This document shows, piece by piece, positions 1-5,594 of a stretch of DNA of 5,594 bases. The notes beneath the pieces are model-generated. The model was not told where the DNA came from. It saw nothing but the letters and a program-made list of their open reading frames with translations, and ran no database searches. The first letter of the stretch is position 1. Every line of letters starts with the position of its first letter. Both the position numbers and the translations under genes were made by a program. Source of the stretch: a virus (lineage: Duplodnaviria > Heunggongvirae > Uroviricota > Caudoviricetes); the IMG/VR virus record IMGVR_UViG_2663762627_000005, positions 1 to 5,594 of that record; one strand, 5' to 3'.

Positions 1-441
1 GATTACGAAATTATGCCGCCTTTTCGCCAGTTGTCGCGCCGCACGGTGCTGCTCACACCAAAAGAATCTACCTGAACGATCAAGCGCACGGTTTTTTATC
101 ATCTCAGGCTGGTTTTTAATCCCCATCAGCTCCGGTGCTAGTGCAGCGGCCAGTTCTGCACCGTTCTGCTGCATAAAATCATGCAGTCGGTTACGGATGC
201 TGATGCGTTGCACCTCCTCATGTGAGCGGATATAGCGACCGGCGGCCTGATTAATCTCCCATTTTTTTATATCGATGAGCTCACGCAGCATCTGTAAGCA
301 GCGGGAACCCGTTGCATTGTCATCTAGCAATAATTCCTGATATTCCTGCATTGCGGCGGCCAGTTCGGTTTTACGGTTCAGCCACACGGTTTTGTTCGTC
401 TGACAGGCGTCACAGGCCTGCTGTAAGGTCAGAGTGGTCAC
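1..441 (-). CDS. psu: Psu-like polarity suppression / capsid decoration protein, 5' part only (147 codons; 3' end lies beyond the left edge)
   Basis: Reverse-strand frame open from GTG at 441-439 to position 1 with no stop. SD-like AGGAGAG sits 7 nt upstream (on the minus strand). Translation (VTTLTLQQACDACQTNKTVWLNRKTELAAAMQEYQELL...KWEINQAAGRYIRSHEEVQRISIRNRLHDFMQQNGAELAAALAPELMG) closely matches P4 Psu as I recall it. Third gene of the sid-delta-psu order. Not in the supplied ORF track because it is edge-truncated and GTG-initiated. Confidence 0.8.
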   Translation of the reverse strand, partial: MTTLTLQQACDACQTNKTVWLNRKTELAAAMQEYQELLLDDNATGSRCLQMLRELIDIKKWEINQAAGRYIRSHEEVQRISIRNRLHDFMQQNGAELAAALAPELMGIKNQPEMIKNRALDRSGRFFWCEQHRAARQLAKRRHNFVI

Positions 442-457
442 GGGTTGTCTCTCCTGA

Positions 458-703
458 TTAATGGCAGAACGGCGAGCTGTAGCAGCCTTTTACCCGACGG
501 GGTGCCACGGGGGCTGTCGGCACCGGCGCGGGTTTCTCATCGACGACCGGCGAACGTATCACTTCAAAGATGGACTCATGCGTTTTAAATGTCGCCGAGC
601 AGTGCACATTCTGGCACTGCAGGTAACTCTCTTTGACGCTGTCAGACATATAGCGGCTGGTGCGAACGTGTGCCGCCGTGCGGCAGAAAGGGCAGCGCAT
701 CAT
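458..703 (-). CDS. delta: Ogr/Delta-family zinc-finger late transcription activator (81 aa)
   Basis: ORF MMRCPFCRTAAHVRTSRYMSDSVKESYLQCQNVHCSATF... carries the Cys4 pattern C-x2-C-x22-C-x4-C and strong similarity to P2 Ogr (MFHCPLCQHAAHARTSRYI...QCQNVNCSATF). Its ATG overlaps the stop of the upstream gene (ATGA, translational coupling). Confidence 0.88.
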   Translation of the reverse strand: MMRCPFCRTAAHVRTSRYMSDSVKESYLQCQNVHCSATFKTHESIFEVIRSPVVDEKPAPVPTAPVAPRRVKGCYSSPFCH

Positions 704-1437
704 GACAATAACCCCCGAGCCTTCAGGTCAGCTTCACGTTCCTGCATTTTTTCCTGCCAGACTTTTCGCTGAACGGGAGTGGCCGCAACGTCATGCTCCA
801 TATGCGGCAGCGTGGAGGCCGACAGTCCTGTTTTAAACAGCACCGGTTCATCGGTCAGACGGATATCGCAGCCTTTCACCGCCTGCTCAAGTCGGTCTTT
901 CACCTGCTGCATAACGGCCTGTTCTGGCTGGATATAGCCCTGATGCCCGGTGGTATTGGCAAGCGGGTTATTAAGAACCAGTATGTTGAGTTTCATTGCC
1001 CTGACCAGCGCGCTACAGGTATCACGCAGGGCAACATCGAGCTCATGCTCTGCATACTGGCTGAGGACGCTGTAATGTGCCTGACGGTACGCTCTGGCCG
1101 TCCGGTCACAGACTCCCTTAAGGCTGTCCAGCTCAAAAGACAGAACCTCAGCCATATTGTCACATTCCTGCGCCAGTTCCCGCCGTGCCACGCGCGCCAG
1201 ATGGCGTTGTTTCAGCTCGTCGGTAACGACAGCACCACCGGCACGAAAGGCGGCGCGCCATGCGCCGGAATCATTGCCGTTTTCCTGCTCCAGTTCATTT
1301 TTTTGCGTTTGCACCTGGCTGATGGCCGTCGTGGTTTCATCCATACGGCTGGCATTGGCGAGATGCGCCGAGCGGGCAGTCTCAAGGCGTTCCATTGCAG
1401 GTTTAAGGTAGTCGGGAATAACAGCGGTCTGAGTCAT
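700..1437 (-). CDS. sid: Sid-like protein (capsid size determination / external scaffold), 245 aa; assignment by synteny and size
   Basis: First gene downstream of the Delta-type promoter box, followed by delta and psu as in P4. The ATG at 1437-1435 is preceded by GAGGAGA with a 6-nt spacer; the longer track ORF (to 1503) has no SD and would start inside the promoter. 245 aa is close to P4 Sid. Sequence identity to Sid not verified. Confidence 0.6.
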   Translation of the reverse strand: MTQTAVIPDYLKPAMERLETARSAHLANASRMDETTTAISQVQTQKNELEQENGNDSGAWRAAFRAGGAVVTDELKQRHLARVARRELAQECDNMAEVLSFELDSLKGVCDRTARAYRQAHYSVLSQYAEHELDVALRDTCSALVRAMKLNILVLNNPLANTTGHQGYIQPEQAVMQQVKDRLEQAVKGCDIRLTDEPVLFKTGLSASTLPHMEHDVAATPVQRKVWQEKMQEREADLKARGLLS

Positions 1438-1469
1438 GTCGGGTCTCCTCTTCGTTTCAATCTGAGGAG

Positions 1470-1528
1470 ATTCTGCCGCGCCAGACACAACAACACGATT
1501 CATTGGCGTTGTGGCAAAAATGACACAA
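1470..1528 (-). promoter_or_regulatory. Psid-like late promoter: TGT-N12-ACA dyad (1511-1528) plus candidate -10 CAGAAT (1475-1470, minus strand)
   Basis: Exact TGTggcaaaaatgacACA at 1511-1528. The dyad centre is about 55-57 bp upstream of the predicted start site and about 80 bp upstream of the sid ATG, the geometry of Ogr/Delta-activated P2/P4 late promoters. Confidence 0.6.
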
Positions 1529-1613
1529 ACAGACCTTAAAACCCGGCTGGCCAGAGAAAGGTCTCAGGAAACCCTTACTCACTGTTTGTTTTTTTACTAA
1601 TAACTATTCACTA

Positions 1614-1708
1614 CTGTTCACCTTAAGAAAAAAGATAAGTAATACAGTTAATTAAAGGGTGAACAGTTGAAGGTCTGACTGTTCACCGTCTGTTCACCAC
1701 TGTTCACC
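1614..1708. repeat. Cluster of five CTGTTCACC repeats (P4 type I iteron core TGTTCACC); crr-like alpha-binding region
   Basis: Direct copies at 1614-1622, 1679-1687, 1690-1698 and 1700-1708 (the last three phased at 11 and 10 bp), plus an inverted copy GGTGAACAG at 1658-1666. The octamer TGTTCACC is the alpha-protein binding iteron of P4 ori and crr. Confidence 0.7.
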
Positions 1709-1790
1709 CTTCTGTTTTTCTCTGCCGATACCTTTAGACTTTATTTCGATTAAAAATCAAAAATATATAACTAAAAGAAATAGAAATTGC

Positions 1791-1844
1791 TGCATTGTAA
1801 TGCAGTGATTTGCATCTGTTTGCCAGCGTTTGCCTTTGTTTGCC
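1791..1844 (+). promoter_or_regulatory. Candidate operator/PLL-region elements: perfect palindrome TGCATTGTAATGCA and three GTTTGCC direct repeats phased at exactly 10 bp
   Basis: Palindrome at 1791-1804. GTTTGCC at 1818-1824, 1828-1834 and 1838-1844. Lies 130-180 bp upstream of the vis/alpA start, with an AT-rich tract (1740-1790) just upstream. Confidence 0.4.
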
Positions 1845-1973
1845 ATAGCGAAAAGTCAATGTTTGTTTCCACGAAAATCTCACATGACCTGAGGAAAAAT
1901 ATAGACATAATAAGGAGCTACCCGAAGCCGGACGGACACGACCGGCACCGTATGGACTTTATGAGGTAGCCCG

Positions 1974-2240
1974 ATGCACACCGCTTTTTCTTCCCCGTCT
2001 TCTGCCCCTGCCGCGCCGCTGATGCCGGTCTCTGACGCCGTTCATGAGCGTTTTATTCGTCTGCCTGAAGTGATGCATTTATGCGGCCTGTCTCGTTCGA
2101 CCATTTATGACCTCATCAGCCGGGAAGCTTTCCCGAAGCAAATCTCCCTCGGCGGTAAAAACGTGGCGTGGGCGCAGTCTGAAATCACCGCATGGATGGC
2201 GGATCGCATTGCCGAACGTAACCGGGGTTATGACGCATGA
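1974..2240 (+). CDS. vis: AlpA/Vis-family small DNA-binding regulator (88 aa), MerR-like HTH
   Basis: ATG at 1974 with GAGG 7 nt upstream. The protein contains [50 protein letters not shown], characteristic of prophage AlpA/Vis/excisionase-like regulators. Same size (88 aa) and position as P4 vis (orf88) as I recall. Confidence 0.85.
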
Positions 2241-2788
2241 TGATGACCGTTCAGCAAACAGCCCCTTTTTCTGGCTTGCTTCTTTTCATCGTTTCCAGGT
2301 ATAGTTTTCCCGCTGCCGCAAAATCGGCAGCCGGGCGTAGGAACCCGAGTTACTTATTGGCGACACCAGACGCGCCATGCGTCTTTTTTTACGTCGTTGC
2401 TCAGGCACACCCATTTTCCGGGCTGTGGTGCTTATACCTTAGCCCCTGTCAGATAATGGTGGTCCGGGCGGGGCAGCCTTCGGGCTGGCCGGTTTCCAAT
2501 AAGGCCGGTATTCCTACCCCCGTTCGGGTCACCACCCATGAGCGTAGGAACTCCGGTGGTGGCAATTACCGCTACTTATTGGAGGTTGCCGCTATGGCTA
2601 CGACCCTCACCCTGCCACACCCGCAGTTTGTCTTTGTGTTTGCCGCCGTTCGTCGCGCAGACCGTAAACCCCGTATCTGTATGCTTCGCACCGTTGCCGG
2701 TGATGAACACGCTGCACGTCTTTCCCTCGTTCGCGATTATGTCCTCTCGTTCGCTGGCCGTCTGCCGGTTGCGGAGGTGTGCGCATGA
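2237..2788 (+). CDS. eta: Eta-like long ORF (183 aa) whose terminal part is kil; starts with three consecutive ATG codons and reads through seqA, the CI-like RNA and seqC
   Basis: About 119 codons stay open across a region that is clearly an RNA regulatory locus, in frame with kil. The start overlaps the vis stop (ATGA) and is followed by ATGATG. This matches the P4 description of eta as a nested ORF beginning upstream of PLE with three possible start codons. Whether it is translated is untested. Confidence 0.45.
2276..2305 (+). promoter_or_regulatory. Sigma70-type promoter, PLE-like: -35 TTGCTT (2276-2281), 18-bp spacer, -10 TATAGT (2300-2305)
   Basis: Good hexamers with correct spacing. 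Placed just upstream of seqA and the CI-like RNA and just inside the eta ORF, as expected for the constitutive early promoter of a P4-type left operon. Confidence 0.55.
2335..2361 (+). promoter_or_regulatory. seqA-like target of the immunity RNA (GTAGGAA ... CTTATTGG)
   Basis: GCGTAGGAACccgagttaCTTATTGG is complementary in two blocks to the seqB segment of the downstream RNA (CCAATAAG ... TTCCTAC at 2496-2517). Confidence 0.65.
2368..2390 (+). terminator. Intrinsic-terminator-like hairpin (AGACGC / gccat loop / GCGTCT) followed by a T7 tract
   Basis: 6-bp stem at 2368-2373 and 2379-2384 with a T run at 2384-2390, immediately downstream of seqA in the leader. Orientation-specific: there is no U-tract on the other strand. 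Confidence 0.4.
2455..2537 (+). ncRNA. cI: CI-like immunity RNA (about 80 nt) carrying seqB; boundaries approximate
   Basis: A terminal helix can form between GGUGGUCCGGGCGGGG (2458-2473) and CCCCCGUUCGGGUCACCACC (2517-2536). Internal hairpin CAGCC-UUCG-GGCUG (2474-2488). The seqB segment CCAATAAGgccggtaTTCCTAC (2496-2517) is complementary to both seqA and seqC. P4 CI RNA is a processed leader RNA of about 79 nt. Confidence 0.6.
2541..2585 (+). promoter_or_regulatory. seqC-like target of the immunity RNA, overlapping the kil Shine-Dalgarno
   Basis: AGCGTAGGAAC (2541-2551) and CTTATTGG (2575-2582) repeat the seqA blocks. The GGAGG SD of kil is at 2581-2585, so CI/seqC pairing would occlude the kil ribosome-binding site. 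Confidence 0.6.
2594..2788 (+). CDS. kil: Kil-like small protein (64 aa), first translated gene downstream of the PLE-like promoter
   Basis: ATG at 2594 with GGAGG 8 nt upstream. 64 codons ([64 protein letters not shown]). P4 kil is 65 aa at the same position. Function inferred from position only. Confidence 0.6.
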
Positions 2789-3012
2789 GACACACCACCA
2801 TTACTGCCCGTGACCTCGAATGCCTTGAACATATGCGCAACGTCGGTCAGCTCGTCAGCGAACTGATGCAGGTGCAGGACTGTGCCACTGTTCGCCGTGA
2901 CCCGGCGCAGCAGTTACAGCTCACCTCCGTGATTTACCTTATGACCGCCCAGCTCGACGGCATGGTCGAACGCTGCAATCAGCACTGGCTGACCGGGGAG
3001 GACAACGTATGA
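2785..3012 (+). CDS. Hypothetical small protein (75 aa from ATG 2785; the track's GTG 2779 start gives 77 aa)
   Basis: GGAGG at 2773-2777 is 7 nt upstream of ATG 2785. The ATG overlaps the kil stop (ATGA). No recognisable motif. Occupies the slot where P4 carries small left-operon genes such as eps. Confidence 0.6.
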
Positions 3013-3329
3013 AACAGCCATTACCGCCCGTATTACGCGCCGCGCTCTATCGCCGTGCAGTGGCCTGTGCCTGGCTGACCCTGTGCGAACGCCAGCACCG
3101 TTACCCGCGCCTCACCCTTGACGCGCTGGAAAGCGCCATTGCTGCCGAGCTGGAGGGCTTCTACCTGCGCCAGCATGGAGAGGAAAAAGGTCGCCAGATT
3201 GCCTGTGCACTGCTCGAAGATTTAATGGAAGCCGGACCACTGAAAGCTGCCCCGTCGCTGTCCTTCCTCGGGCTCGCGGTGATGGATGAACTTTGCGCCC
3301 GCCATATCACCGCACCGGTACTGCACTGA
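3009..3329 (+). CDS. Hypothetical protein (106 aa), translationally coupled to the upstream ORF
   Basis: GGGGAGG at 2995-3001 is 7 nt upstream of ATG 3009. The ATG overlaps the upstream stop (ATGA). The ORF ends 14 nt before the primase start. No recognisable motif. Confidence 0.65.
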
Positions 3330-3343
3330 GGGAGAAAATAACA

Positions 3344-5440
3344 ATGAAAATGAACGTAACGGAAACCGTAAAACAGGCGTGCGGTCACTGGCCGCGTATT
3401 CTCCCGGCGCTGGGTGTGAAGGTGATTAAAAACCGGCATCAGGCCTGTCCGGTGTGCGGCGGCTCTGACCGCTTTCGCTTTGACGATAAAGAGGGGCGCG
3501 GGACGTGGTACTGCAATCAGTGCGGCGCGGGTGACGGGCTTAAGCTGGTCGAAAAGGTGTTCGGTGTAAATCCGTCTGAGGCCGCCCGGAAGGTGAACGC
3601 CGTCACCGGTAATCTGTCGCCGGTTGCCCCGGAAGCGATTGCGGCCGCAGAAGCCGGAACCGATGCCGACCTCCAGGCGGCGGCCGCGCTGGCCGTCAGG
3701 CTCATGGAGAAAACCCGCCCGGCCACCGGCAACGCCTACCTCACCCGCAAGGGTTTCCCCGACCGGGAATGTCTGATGCTCACAGCCATACATAAAACCG
3801 GCGGCGTGACGTTCCGCGCCGGTGATGTGGTTGTCCCGCTGTATGACGATACCGGGGCGCTGGTTAACGTTCAGCTTATTAATGCTGATGGTCTCAAACG
3901 CACCCTGAAAGGCGGTCAGGTCAAAGGGGCATGTCATATCATCGAGGGGCAGAAACAGCCCGGAAAACGCCTGTGGATTGCGGAGGGTTATGCGACCGCG
4001 CTCACCGTGCATCAACTGACCGGCGAAACCGTCATGGTGGCGCTGTCCTCCGTGAACCTCCTTTCTCTGGCGAGCCTTGCCCGTCAGAAGTCCCCGGCCT
4101 GTCAGATTGTCCTCGCCGCCGACCGTGACCTTAACGGCGACGGCCAGAACAAAGCCGCAGCGGCCGCAGGAGCCTGCGAGGGCATTGTTGCCCTGCCACC
4201 GGTGTTCGGTGACTGGAATGATGCGTTTATAGAAAAAGGTGAGGAAGCCACGCGGAAAGCCATTCATAACGCCATCCGGCCACCGGCACAAAGTCCGTTC
4301 GACACCATGAGCGAGGCGGAATTTACCGCCATGAGCGCCAGCGACAAGGCGATGCGGGTGCATGAGCATTACGGCGAAGCGCTGGCTGTGGACGCGAACG
4401 GCCAGCTTCTGTCCCGCTATGAAAACGGCATCTGGAAAAATATCCCTGCCGCCACTTTTTCACGAAATGTTGCTGATTTATTCCGGCGCGTGCGTGCCCC
4501 GTTCTCGTCGGGGAGAATCACCTCAGTGGTGGAGACGCTGAAGCTGATTATTCCTCAGCAGGAGGCACCGGCGCGCCGTCTGATTGGTTTTCGCAACGGG
4601 GTACTTGATACCCAAAGCGGCCTGTTCAGCCCGCACAGTAAATCACACTGGCTGCGCACGCTGTGCGACGTGGATTTTACCCCGCCGGTGGAAGGGGAAA
4701 CGCTGGAGACCCACGCGCCAAACTTCTGGCGCTGGCTCGACCGTGCCGCCGGTGGCAGACCGGAAAAACGCGACGTGATACTTGCCGCGCTGTTTATGGT
4801 GCTGGCGAACCGCTACGACTGGCAGCTCTTTCTCGAAGTCACCGGTCCCGGCGGAAGCGGTAAAAGTATTCTCGCCGAAATCGCGACCCTGCTCGCCGGA
4901 GAGGATAACGCCACGTCAGCCGATATCGACACACTGGAAGACCCGCGCAAGCGCGCATCCCTGACTGGTTTCTCGCTAATCCGTCTGCCTGACCAGGAAA
5001 AATGGAGCGGTGACGGGGCAGGACTCAAAGCCATCACCGGCGGCGATGCGGTCTCAGTTGACCCGAAATACCAGAACCCGTACTCAACACATATTCCGGC
5101 GGTGATTCTGGCCGTGAACAATAACCCGATGCGCTTCACTGACCGCAGCGGCGGTGTGTCACGCCGCCGGGTGATTATTCATTTCCCGGAGCAGATTGCC
5201 CCGGAGGAACGCGACCCGCAGCTCAGGGATAAAATTGCGCGCGAGCTGGCCGTTATCGTGCGCCAGCTTATGCAGAAATTCAGCGACCCGATGGCAGCGC
5301 GCACTCTGCTCCAGTCGCAGCAGAACTCCGATGAAGCGCTCAGCATCAAGCGTGATGCTGACCCGACGTTTGATTTTTGTGGCTATCTGGAAATGCTGCC
5401 GCAGACCAACGGGATGTTGGTAATGGTGCCAACTTACTGA
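3344..5440 (+). CDS. alpha: P4 alpha-type primase-helicase, C-terminus apparently replaced by IS1-derived codons (native codons end near 5418)
   Basis: Start ATG 3344 (MKMNVTETV...) with GAGGGAG upstream; the track's earlier ATG 3293 lies inside the preceding gene. Zinc-ribbon CPVCGG...WYCNQCG, primase EGYATA motif, TOPRIM-like AADRDLNGDG, and Walker A GPGGSGKS (about 4844-4867). The last 7 codons and the stop (5420-5440) lie inside the IS1 terminal inverted repeat. 699 aa versus about 777 aa for P4 alpha. Confidence 0.88.
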   Translation: MKMNVTETVKQACGHWPRILPALGVKVIKNRHQACPVCGGSDRFRFDDKEGRGTWYCNQCGAGDGLKLVEKVFGVNPSEAARKVNAVTGNLSPVAPEAIAAAEAGTDADLQAAAALAVRLMEKTRPATGNAYLTRKGFPDRECLMLTAIHKTGGVTFRAGDVVVPLYDDTGALVNVQLINADGLKRTLKGGQVKGACHIIEGQKQPGKRLWIAEGYATALTVHQLTGETVMVALSSVNLLSLASLARQKSPACQIVLAADRDLNGDGQNKAAAAAGACEGIVALPPVFGDWNDAFIEKGEEATRKAIHNAIRPPAQSPFDTMSEAEFTAMSASDKAMRVHEHYGEALAVDANGQLLSRYENGIWKNIPAATFSRNVADLFRRVRAPFSSGRITSVVETLKLIIPQQEAPARRLIGFRNGVLDTQSGLFSPHSKSHWLRTLCDVDFTPPVEGETLETHAPNFWRWLDRAAGGRPEKRDVILAALFMVLANRYDWQLFLEVTGPGGSGKSILAEIATLLAGEDNATSADIDTLEDPRKRASLTGFSLIRLPDQEKWSGDGAGLKAITGGDAVSVDPKYQNPYSTHIPAVILAVNNNPMRFTDRSGGVSRRRVIIHFPEQIAPEERDPQLRDKIARELAVIVRQLMQKFSDPMAARTLLQSQQNSDEALSIKRDADPTFDFCGYLEMLPQTNGMLVMVPTY

Positions 5441-5594
5441 TTTAGTGTATCATGGTGTTTTTGAGGTGCTCCCGTGGCTTCCATCTCCATCAGTTGTCCC
5501 TCCTGCTCAGCTACTGAAGGCGTGGTGCGTAACGGTAAAAGTACTGCCGGACATCAGCGCTATCTCTGCTCTCACTGCCGTAAAACATGGCAAC
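5419..5594 (+). mobile_element. IS1 insertion sequence, left end (terminal inverted repeat GGTAATGGTGCCAACTTACTGAT) and start of insA; continues beyond the window
   Basis: 5419-5441 matches the IS1 terminal inverted repeat apart from a few variant positions, followed by the characteristic TTTAGTGTAT...GGTGTTTTTGAGGTGCTCC leader and insA. Confidence 0.9.
5474..5594 (+). CDS. insA: IS1 InsA (transposition repressor / N-terminal transposase part), 5' portion only
   Basis: GTG start at 5474. Translation (V/M)[39 protein letters not shown] matches the InsA N-terminus (zinc-finger CPSC...CSHC). ORF runs off the right edge. Confidence 0.9.

Follow-up and report, generated by a model that had tools for sequence, protein, structure and literature searches.

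The exact TGT-N12-ACA dyad upstream of sid in the window (the whole stretch of DNA that was analysed, 5,594 bp) is, with a probability that we put at about 0.88, the site at which a P4-like satellite's sid promoter (Psid) is bound by its activator, either the satellite's own Delta protein or the Ogr protein of a helper phage. The initial annotation had already pointed to this dyad, correctly as to its existence and one base off as to its place: it spans 1510–1527, with its centre at 1518.5, and not 1511–1528. Binding of the activator, its contact with the alpha subunit of RNA polymerase, the activator dependence of the promoter and the exact transcription start are predicted here from what is known of P2 and P4.

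The window contains the degraded prophage of a P4-like satellite of E. coli (Table 1). It shares 79% DNA identity with satellite phage P4 across 58% of its length, and for its positions 400–2300 the identity to a P4-like prophage of strain PSS-16 of E. coli is 99.9%; the PSS-16 prophage is a near-identical element that is intact, carries an integrase and is integrated next to ssrA. Window and intact PSS-16 copy differ at only five positions in 72–5417, all of them outside dyad, −10 hexamer and Shine-Dalgarno sequence. With the core gene set of P4-like satellites taken as defined in PMC8628076, psu, delta, sid, alpA, DUF5375/ORF106 and alpha were all found, and in the order in which they stand in P4, with psu and alpha damaged; the integrase gene and the cos site fall outside the window. 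Positions 1–59 match yehI, a core chromosomal gene of E. coli, at 100% identity, and the part homologous to the intact element begins no earlier than 72, which leaves psu truncated, without its C-terminal quarter, and fused to chromosomal sequence; what is left of it covers positions 1–121 of the 182 in the Psu profile. At the other end, alpha is interrupted at 5418 by the end of an IS1-family element (5418–5594, 91–93% identical to IS1/IS1F copies), a point beyond which the intact alpha gene of PSS-16 runs on for about 80 codons. Neither the psu/yehI nor the alpha/IS1 junction occurs in any of 5,426 complete E. coli genomes. The element in the window can probably no longer replicate or be packaged.

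Table 1. Genes and control elements of the window, with their coordinates
Feature	Coordinates	Strand	Remarks
psu (polarity suppression, capsid decoration)	1..441	−	Pfam Psu, 1e-53; operon gene 3
delta, 81 aa, single-domain Ogr/Delta zinc-finger activator	458..703	−	Pfam PF04606 Ogr_Delta, 5.2e-21
sid, 245 aa, capsid size-determining external scaffold	700..1437	−	Identified by homology; operon gene 1
Shine-Dalgarno sequence GAGGAG	1445..1450	−	7 nt ahead of the sid ATG; kept in relatives
Predicted sid transcription start, about 1463 (an A, 7 nt past the hexamer)	1461..1465	−	Placed by hexamer position and −55.5 geometry
−10-like hexamer CAGAAT	1470..1475	−	34 nt downstream of the dyad; sole −10-like element
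Degenerate match of the second P4 dyad (about −18), TGT-N12-AGA	1472..1489		One mismatch; overlaps the −10 hexamer
Conserved block TCGTGTTGTTGT, about −34 to −23 (−35 region)	1486..1497	−	Poor match to TTGACA
Predicted Ogr/Delta activator box, exact TGT-N12-ACA	1510..1527		Plus strand TGTGGCAAAAATGACACA; sid-sense strand TGTGTCATTTTTGCCACA
Control region sid–alpA			536 bp, intergenic; with P4-type origin iterons
alpA/ORF88	1974–2240		
Immunity RNA region	2299–2539		Rfam c4-a1b1, isrK, C4
Two small ORFs, then DUF5375/ORF106			Right of the immunity RNA region
alpha (primase-helicase)	Starts at 3344		

To the left of the dyad lie sid, delta and psu, arranged as the late operon of a P4-like satellite. 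More than 100 homologues of Sid carry the annotation 'glycoprotein 3' or Sid, and Sid itself is 64% identical to the Sid protein of P4. Delta carries the cysteines C4, C7, C30 and C35 in the arrangement CX2CX22CX4C. Over the finger it stands nearer to P2 Ogr (59.6% identity, residues 1–52) than to P4 Delta (35%), from which it also differs in build, the P4 protein being a two-domain one of 166 aa. An Ogr/Delta-type gene follows directly on sid in 24/24 Sid loci. The ATG of delta overlaps the stop codon of sid (ATGA) and psu follows 16 nt after delta, by which the three genes form one operon; a passage of PMC13586616, citing Reiter et al. 1998, likewise describes psu-delta-sid as driven by one promoter.

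Placing the start by the usual −10-to-start spacing and by the match to the geometry of P2 puts the centre of the dyad at −55.5 relative to position 1463, which fits the earlier estimate of a dyad centred about 56 bp upstream of a predicted start near 1462. Upstream of CAGAAT by 17 nt stands the hexamer TCGTGT, matching TTGACA at 2/6 positions. In the conserved TCGTGTTGTTGT block of the −35 region, TCG and TGTTGT are invariant among relatives and the three bases between them nearly so; the final TGT of the block corresponds to the left half of the −18 dyad of P4. Scanning 1380–2000 did not yield a sigma-70-like promoter on the minus strand, and this, together with the weak −35, is as expected for an activator-dependent promoter. 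A longer sid reading frame, starting at 1503 and thereby bringing the box to the start codon, was considered and discarded: its ATG is missing in the relatives L014, L015 and L022–L026, a GAGGAG Shine-Dalgarno sequence precedes the ATG at 1437, and both RefSeq (strain PSS-16) and P4 use the shorter form.

In late promoters, the inverted repeats to which Ogr binds have their centres at about −55, and activation, as known for P2/P4, needs the alpha subunit of RNA polymerase with its C-terminal domain (PMC3152322); the late-promoter consensus is given as TGT-N12-ACA (PMC3931495). In the P2 record, activator sites and mapped starts are annotated for four late promoters, with centres at −55.5 (PO, PP and PV) and about −57.5 (PF), those of PP and PV being taken from the annotated intervals. 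The P2 late promoters PP/PO, PV and PF have an inverted repeat centred at about −55, the position predicted for the dyad of the window; like the window, they have no good −35, and the left arm of PO, TGTGTCA, is identical to that of the window. They differ from it in driving structural and lysis operons, in lacking homology to its sequence beyond the arms, and in that their sites are imperfect, reading TGT-N12-CCA at PO/PP and at PF and TGT-N11-ACA at PV (L028 3057–3087, 10239–10266 and 17555–17583). The consensus is thus looser than the description of the window's dyad as a canonical Ogr/Delta box implies, since the P2 late promoters do not have an exact TGT-N12-ACA. As a side observation, this 'consensus' is better matched by satellite sites than by the promoters of the P2 helper itself.

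The alignment of the window's control region with that of P4 starts at the sid ATG and takes in the origin iterons; it is gap-free between the dyad and the ATG of sid, with flanking blocks, hexamer and Shine-Dalgarno sequence in register, and the dyad aligns column for column with the P4 dyad at L002 2115–2132 (TGTGTCAGGGCTGGCACA). As can be seen from this alignment, both satellites have an exact TGT-N12-ACA in the same place upstream of the sid-delta-psu operon and beside the origin iterons, with shared arms TGTGTCA...CACA, a 34-nt gap to a −10-like hexamer and the TCGTGTTGTTGT block in common. The differences lie in the spacer centre, ATTTTTGC in the window versus GGGCTGGC in P4, and in the −10 hexamer, CAGAAT in the window versus CACAAT in P4. 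Reportedly, the start of P4 Psid has been mapped and Delta footprints have been obtained at −55 and at −18.

The P4 control region holds three exact dyads: the one upstream of sid, one at about −17.5 that overlaps the −10, and one upstream of ORF88 (PLL). The second of these (L002 2077–2094, centre −17.5) is exact solely in P4-type control regions and reads TGT-N12-AGA in other lineages; so it does in the window, where the −10 is CAGAAT and not CACAAT. We considered whether the extra P4 dyads (−18 and PLL) go with a two-domain Delta and rejected this, E. coli ETEC6333 (L030) combining an 81-aa Delta with a three-dyad control region of the P4 type, from which it follows that the extra dyads go with the lineage of the control region and not with the type of Delta. 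Also set aside was a '−10 consensus' at 1570–1576 of the old P4 record X02534, which maps inside the dyad by the offset between the records and the wording of which looks like a prediction.

Conservation was assessed over 24 Sid loci, fetched by way of a Sid protein alignment from Enterobacter, Citrobacter, Kluyvera, Scandinavium, Tatumella, Mangrovibacter, Atlantibacter, Superficieibacter, Pseudescherichia, Klebsiella, Raoultella and other genera, to which six E. coli loci were added. An exact TGT-N12-ACA precedes sid in all loci for which the sequence reaches far enough upstream. In 25/25 Sid-linked sequences (22 of them distinct; 23 loci, P4 and the window) CA(G/C)AAT follows the dyad after 34 nt, while hexamer and ATG are 30 to 36 nt apart and the columns at the centre of the spacer each hold three to four different bases. 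Across 31 loci (the 23, P4, the six from E. coli and the window) there are 13 distinct 18-mers, with TGT and ACA unchanged in all of them; even L035, in which TGTG has become TGTA, keeps TGT-N12-ACA. Invariant columns number 27/95, and six out of the six TGT/ACA positions are among them. These relatives are mutually related, so the counts overstate their independence and the conservation is in part shared ancestry. A variable spacer and leader next to fixed triplets and fixed spacing is the pattern predicted for a protein-binding site placed for contact with polymerase, and the dyad is constrained relative to the promoter and not to the coding sequence, with selection holding the outer triplets. 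The family consensus reads TGTG-y-CA-N4-TG-s-CACA, 34 nt upstream of CA(G/C)AAT.

Taken by itself, the bare dyad pattern is not beyond chance. TGT-N12-ACA is expected 1.12 times in the 5.6-kb window and found twice, and at least two copies arose in 63/200 shuffles; in the 536-bp sid–alpA intergenic region about 0.16 copies are expected, and some 15% of shuffled regions contain one. The second exact dyad in the window (1125–1142, inside sid) is indeed best taken as a non-functional chance match, not being conserved among relatives. It could be argued on these figures that the dyad upstream of sid is equally fortuitous and that sid is transcribed from some other promoter. We consider this exceedingly improbable, as the probability that a dyad has its centre no more than 2 bp from a given position is only about 0.0016, the dyad is invariant and at a fixed 34 nt from the hexamer in the 22 distinct sequences although spacer and leader vary, its alignment with the dyad of P4 Psid is exact, and the minus strand of 1380–2000 offers no alternative sigma-70-like promoter. 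It is this fixed position relative to the promoter, the alignment with P4 Psid and the invariance in relatives that lift the dyad at 1510–1527 above chance.

Neither does another factor account well for the dyad, and we judge it very unlikely that the site belongs to, for instance, host CRP (TGTGA-N6-TCACA) or an origin-binding protein. A match of 8/10 to the CRP site, TGTCA-N6-CCACA, does lie inside the dyad; its best register, however, excludes the invariant outer TG and CA and puts a C at the critical G position, the match drops to 7/10 in most relatives (TGTGCCA...), and between the symmetric arms TGTG/CACA there are 10 bp where a CRP site has 8 bp. An origin-binding protein is suggested by the P4 record, in which the dyad falls inside a stretch labelled as replication origin region, but the alpha-protein iterons TGTTCACC (five copies at 1615, 1658 on the minus strand and thus inverted, 1680, 1691 and 1701, as in the P4 annotation, and one degenerate copy, all within 1604–1708) differ from it in sequence, are absent from it and lie about 80 bp or more away. 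Somewhat less improbable, yet still unlikely in our estimation, is that the Psid box is correctly matched and has fallen into disuse, the late operon of a decaying remnant being no longer inducible or no longer of consequence. The fusion of the truncated psu to yehI, the break in alpha and the absence of both junctions from the complete E. coli genomes speak for such a course, and selection on the promoter of the remnant copy may have lapsed. Against it stand the intact state of promoter, sid and delta, the few differences from PSS-16, which as noted leave dyad, hexamer and Shine-Dalgarno sequence untouched, and the consideration that Ogr from an incoming helper would act in trans regardless of the state of alpha.

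With the dyad read as the activator site of Psid, the following mechanism is proposed. A zinc-finger activator, either the satellite's 81-aa Delta or Ogr from an infecting or induced P2-like helper, would bind the TGT-N12-ACA repeat about 55 bp upstream of the start and, once bound, would recruit E. coli RNA polymerase via the alpha subunit to a promoter with the weak −10 CAGAAT and no usable −35, upon which transcription would proceed leftward from about 1463 via sid, delta and psu. As delta lies inside the operon that Delta would activate, the arrangement predicts a positive feedback loop; helper Ogr could trigger this loop, and Delta could then activate the late genes of the helper. In keeping with this, Delta is described as a homologue of Ogr that activates P2 and P4 late genes (PMC7552001; PMC8628076), and helper Ogr is known to trans-activate delta, psu and sid of P4 (PMC7552001). 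The proposal that the late operon is switched on by the element's own Delta or by a helper's Ogr is one that the alignment with P4 Psid, the P2 geometry, the Delta domain and the literature support. Its extension, that the box marks the trans-activation link between satellite and helper, finds support as an interpretation, but applies here to a remnant in which psu is cut off at about 72 and IS1 interrupts alpha.

By sequence criteria, the predicted Psid box is the sole Ogr/Delta box in the window. P4 has a second Ogr/Delta-dependent promoter, PLL, directed rightward toward ORF88/alpA, in which an exact dyad stands 33 nt from CAAAAT, a similar kind of geometry to that of the Psid dyad of the window. 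At the corresponding place in the window (plus strand of 1850–1975, aligned with P4) a PLL-type dyad is absent, and a deletion of about 13 nt relative to P4 together with base changes leaves the sigma-70-like arrangement ATGACC-16-CATAAT at 1884–1911. It is possible, although we lean against it, that in this satellite lineage the Ogr/Delta regulon has been cut to the single Psid box, with the modulatory −18 site degenerate, and that in the window and PSS-16 the box of the PLL-type promoter has been lost, leaving the promoter sigma-70-like; in that case sid-delta-psu alone, and not the replication operon, would respond to helper Ogr, and the three-box circuit of P4 would be a lineage-specific elaboration and not the family norm. 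Five closer relatives (L004, L018, L019, L024 and L035) have at the place of PLL an imperfect TGTTGTGTGG...CTACAAAATGA, which resembles the activator site of P2 PV.

The mechanism is a known one, to which the Psid box adds nothing new. The box would be the cis-element that links the capsid-size and trans-activation module of the satellite to the late activator of the helper, in a geometry that is exact to the base pair across many enterobacterial genera and that is kept even in a copy that has probably lost its replication and packaging functions. Remnants of this kind could still respond to the arrival of a P2-like phage by making Sid and Delta, and could in this way interfere with or modulate the helper. 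The sharper family consensus given above can be used for annotating Psid in satellites.

Some further features of the control region and its surroundings were recorded. At the place of the P4 type 2 repeats, 1818–1844 holds three tandem 10-bp units with GTTTGCC, the unit sequence of which differs from that of the P4 repeats. Between the two iteron sets, 1784–1811 forms a palindrome with a 12-bp stem (AAATTGCTGCATTGTAATGCAGTGATTT), which a terminator scan flags on both strands. The immunity RNA models of Rfam score 83 bits (C4), 76 bits (isrK) and 50 bits (c4-a1b1) in the window. In the PSS-16 copy, RefSeq annotates a 183-aa 'Icd-like' CDS at the place corresponding to 2237–2788, the first 300 bp of which coincide with the strong c4-a1b1/isrK/C4 matches; much of this CDS thus probably consists of RNA genes (the P4 CI immunity RNA and its targets) rather than of protein-coding sequence.
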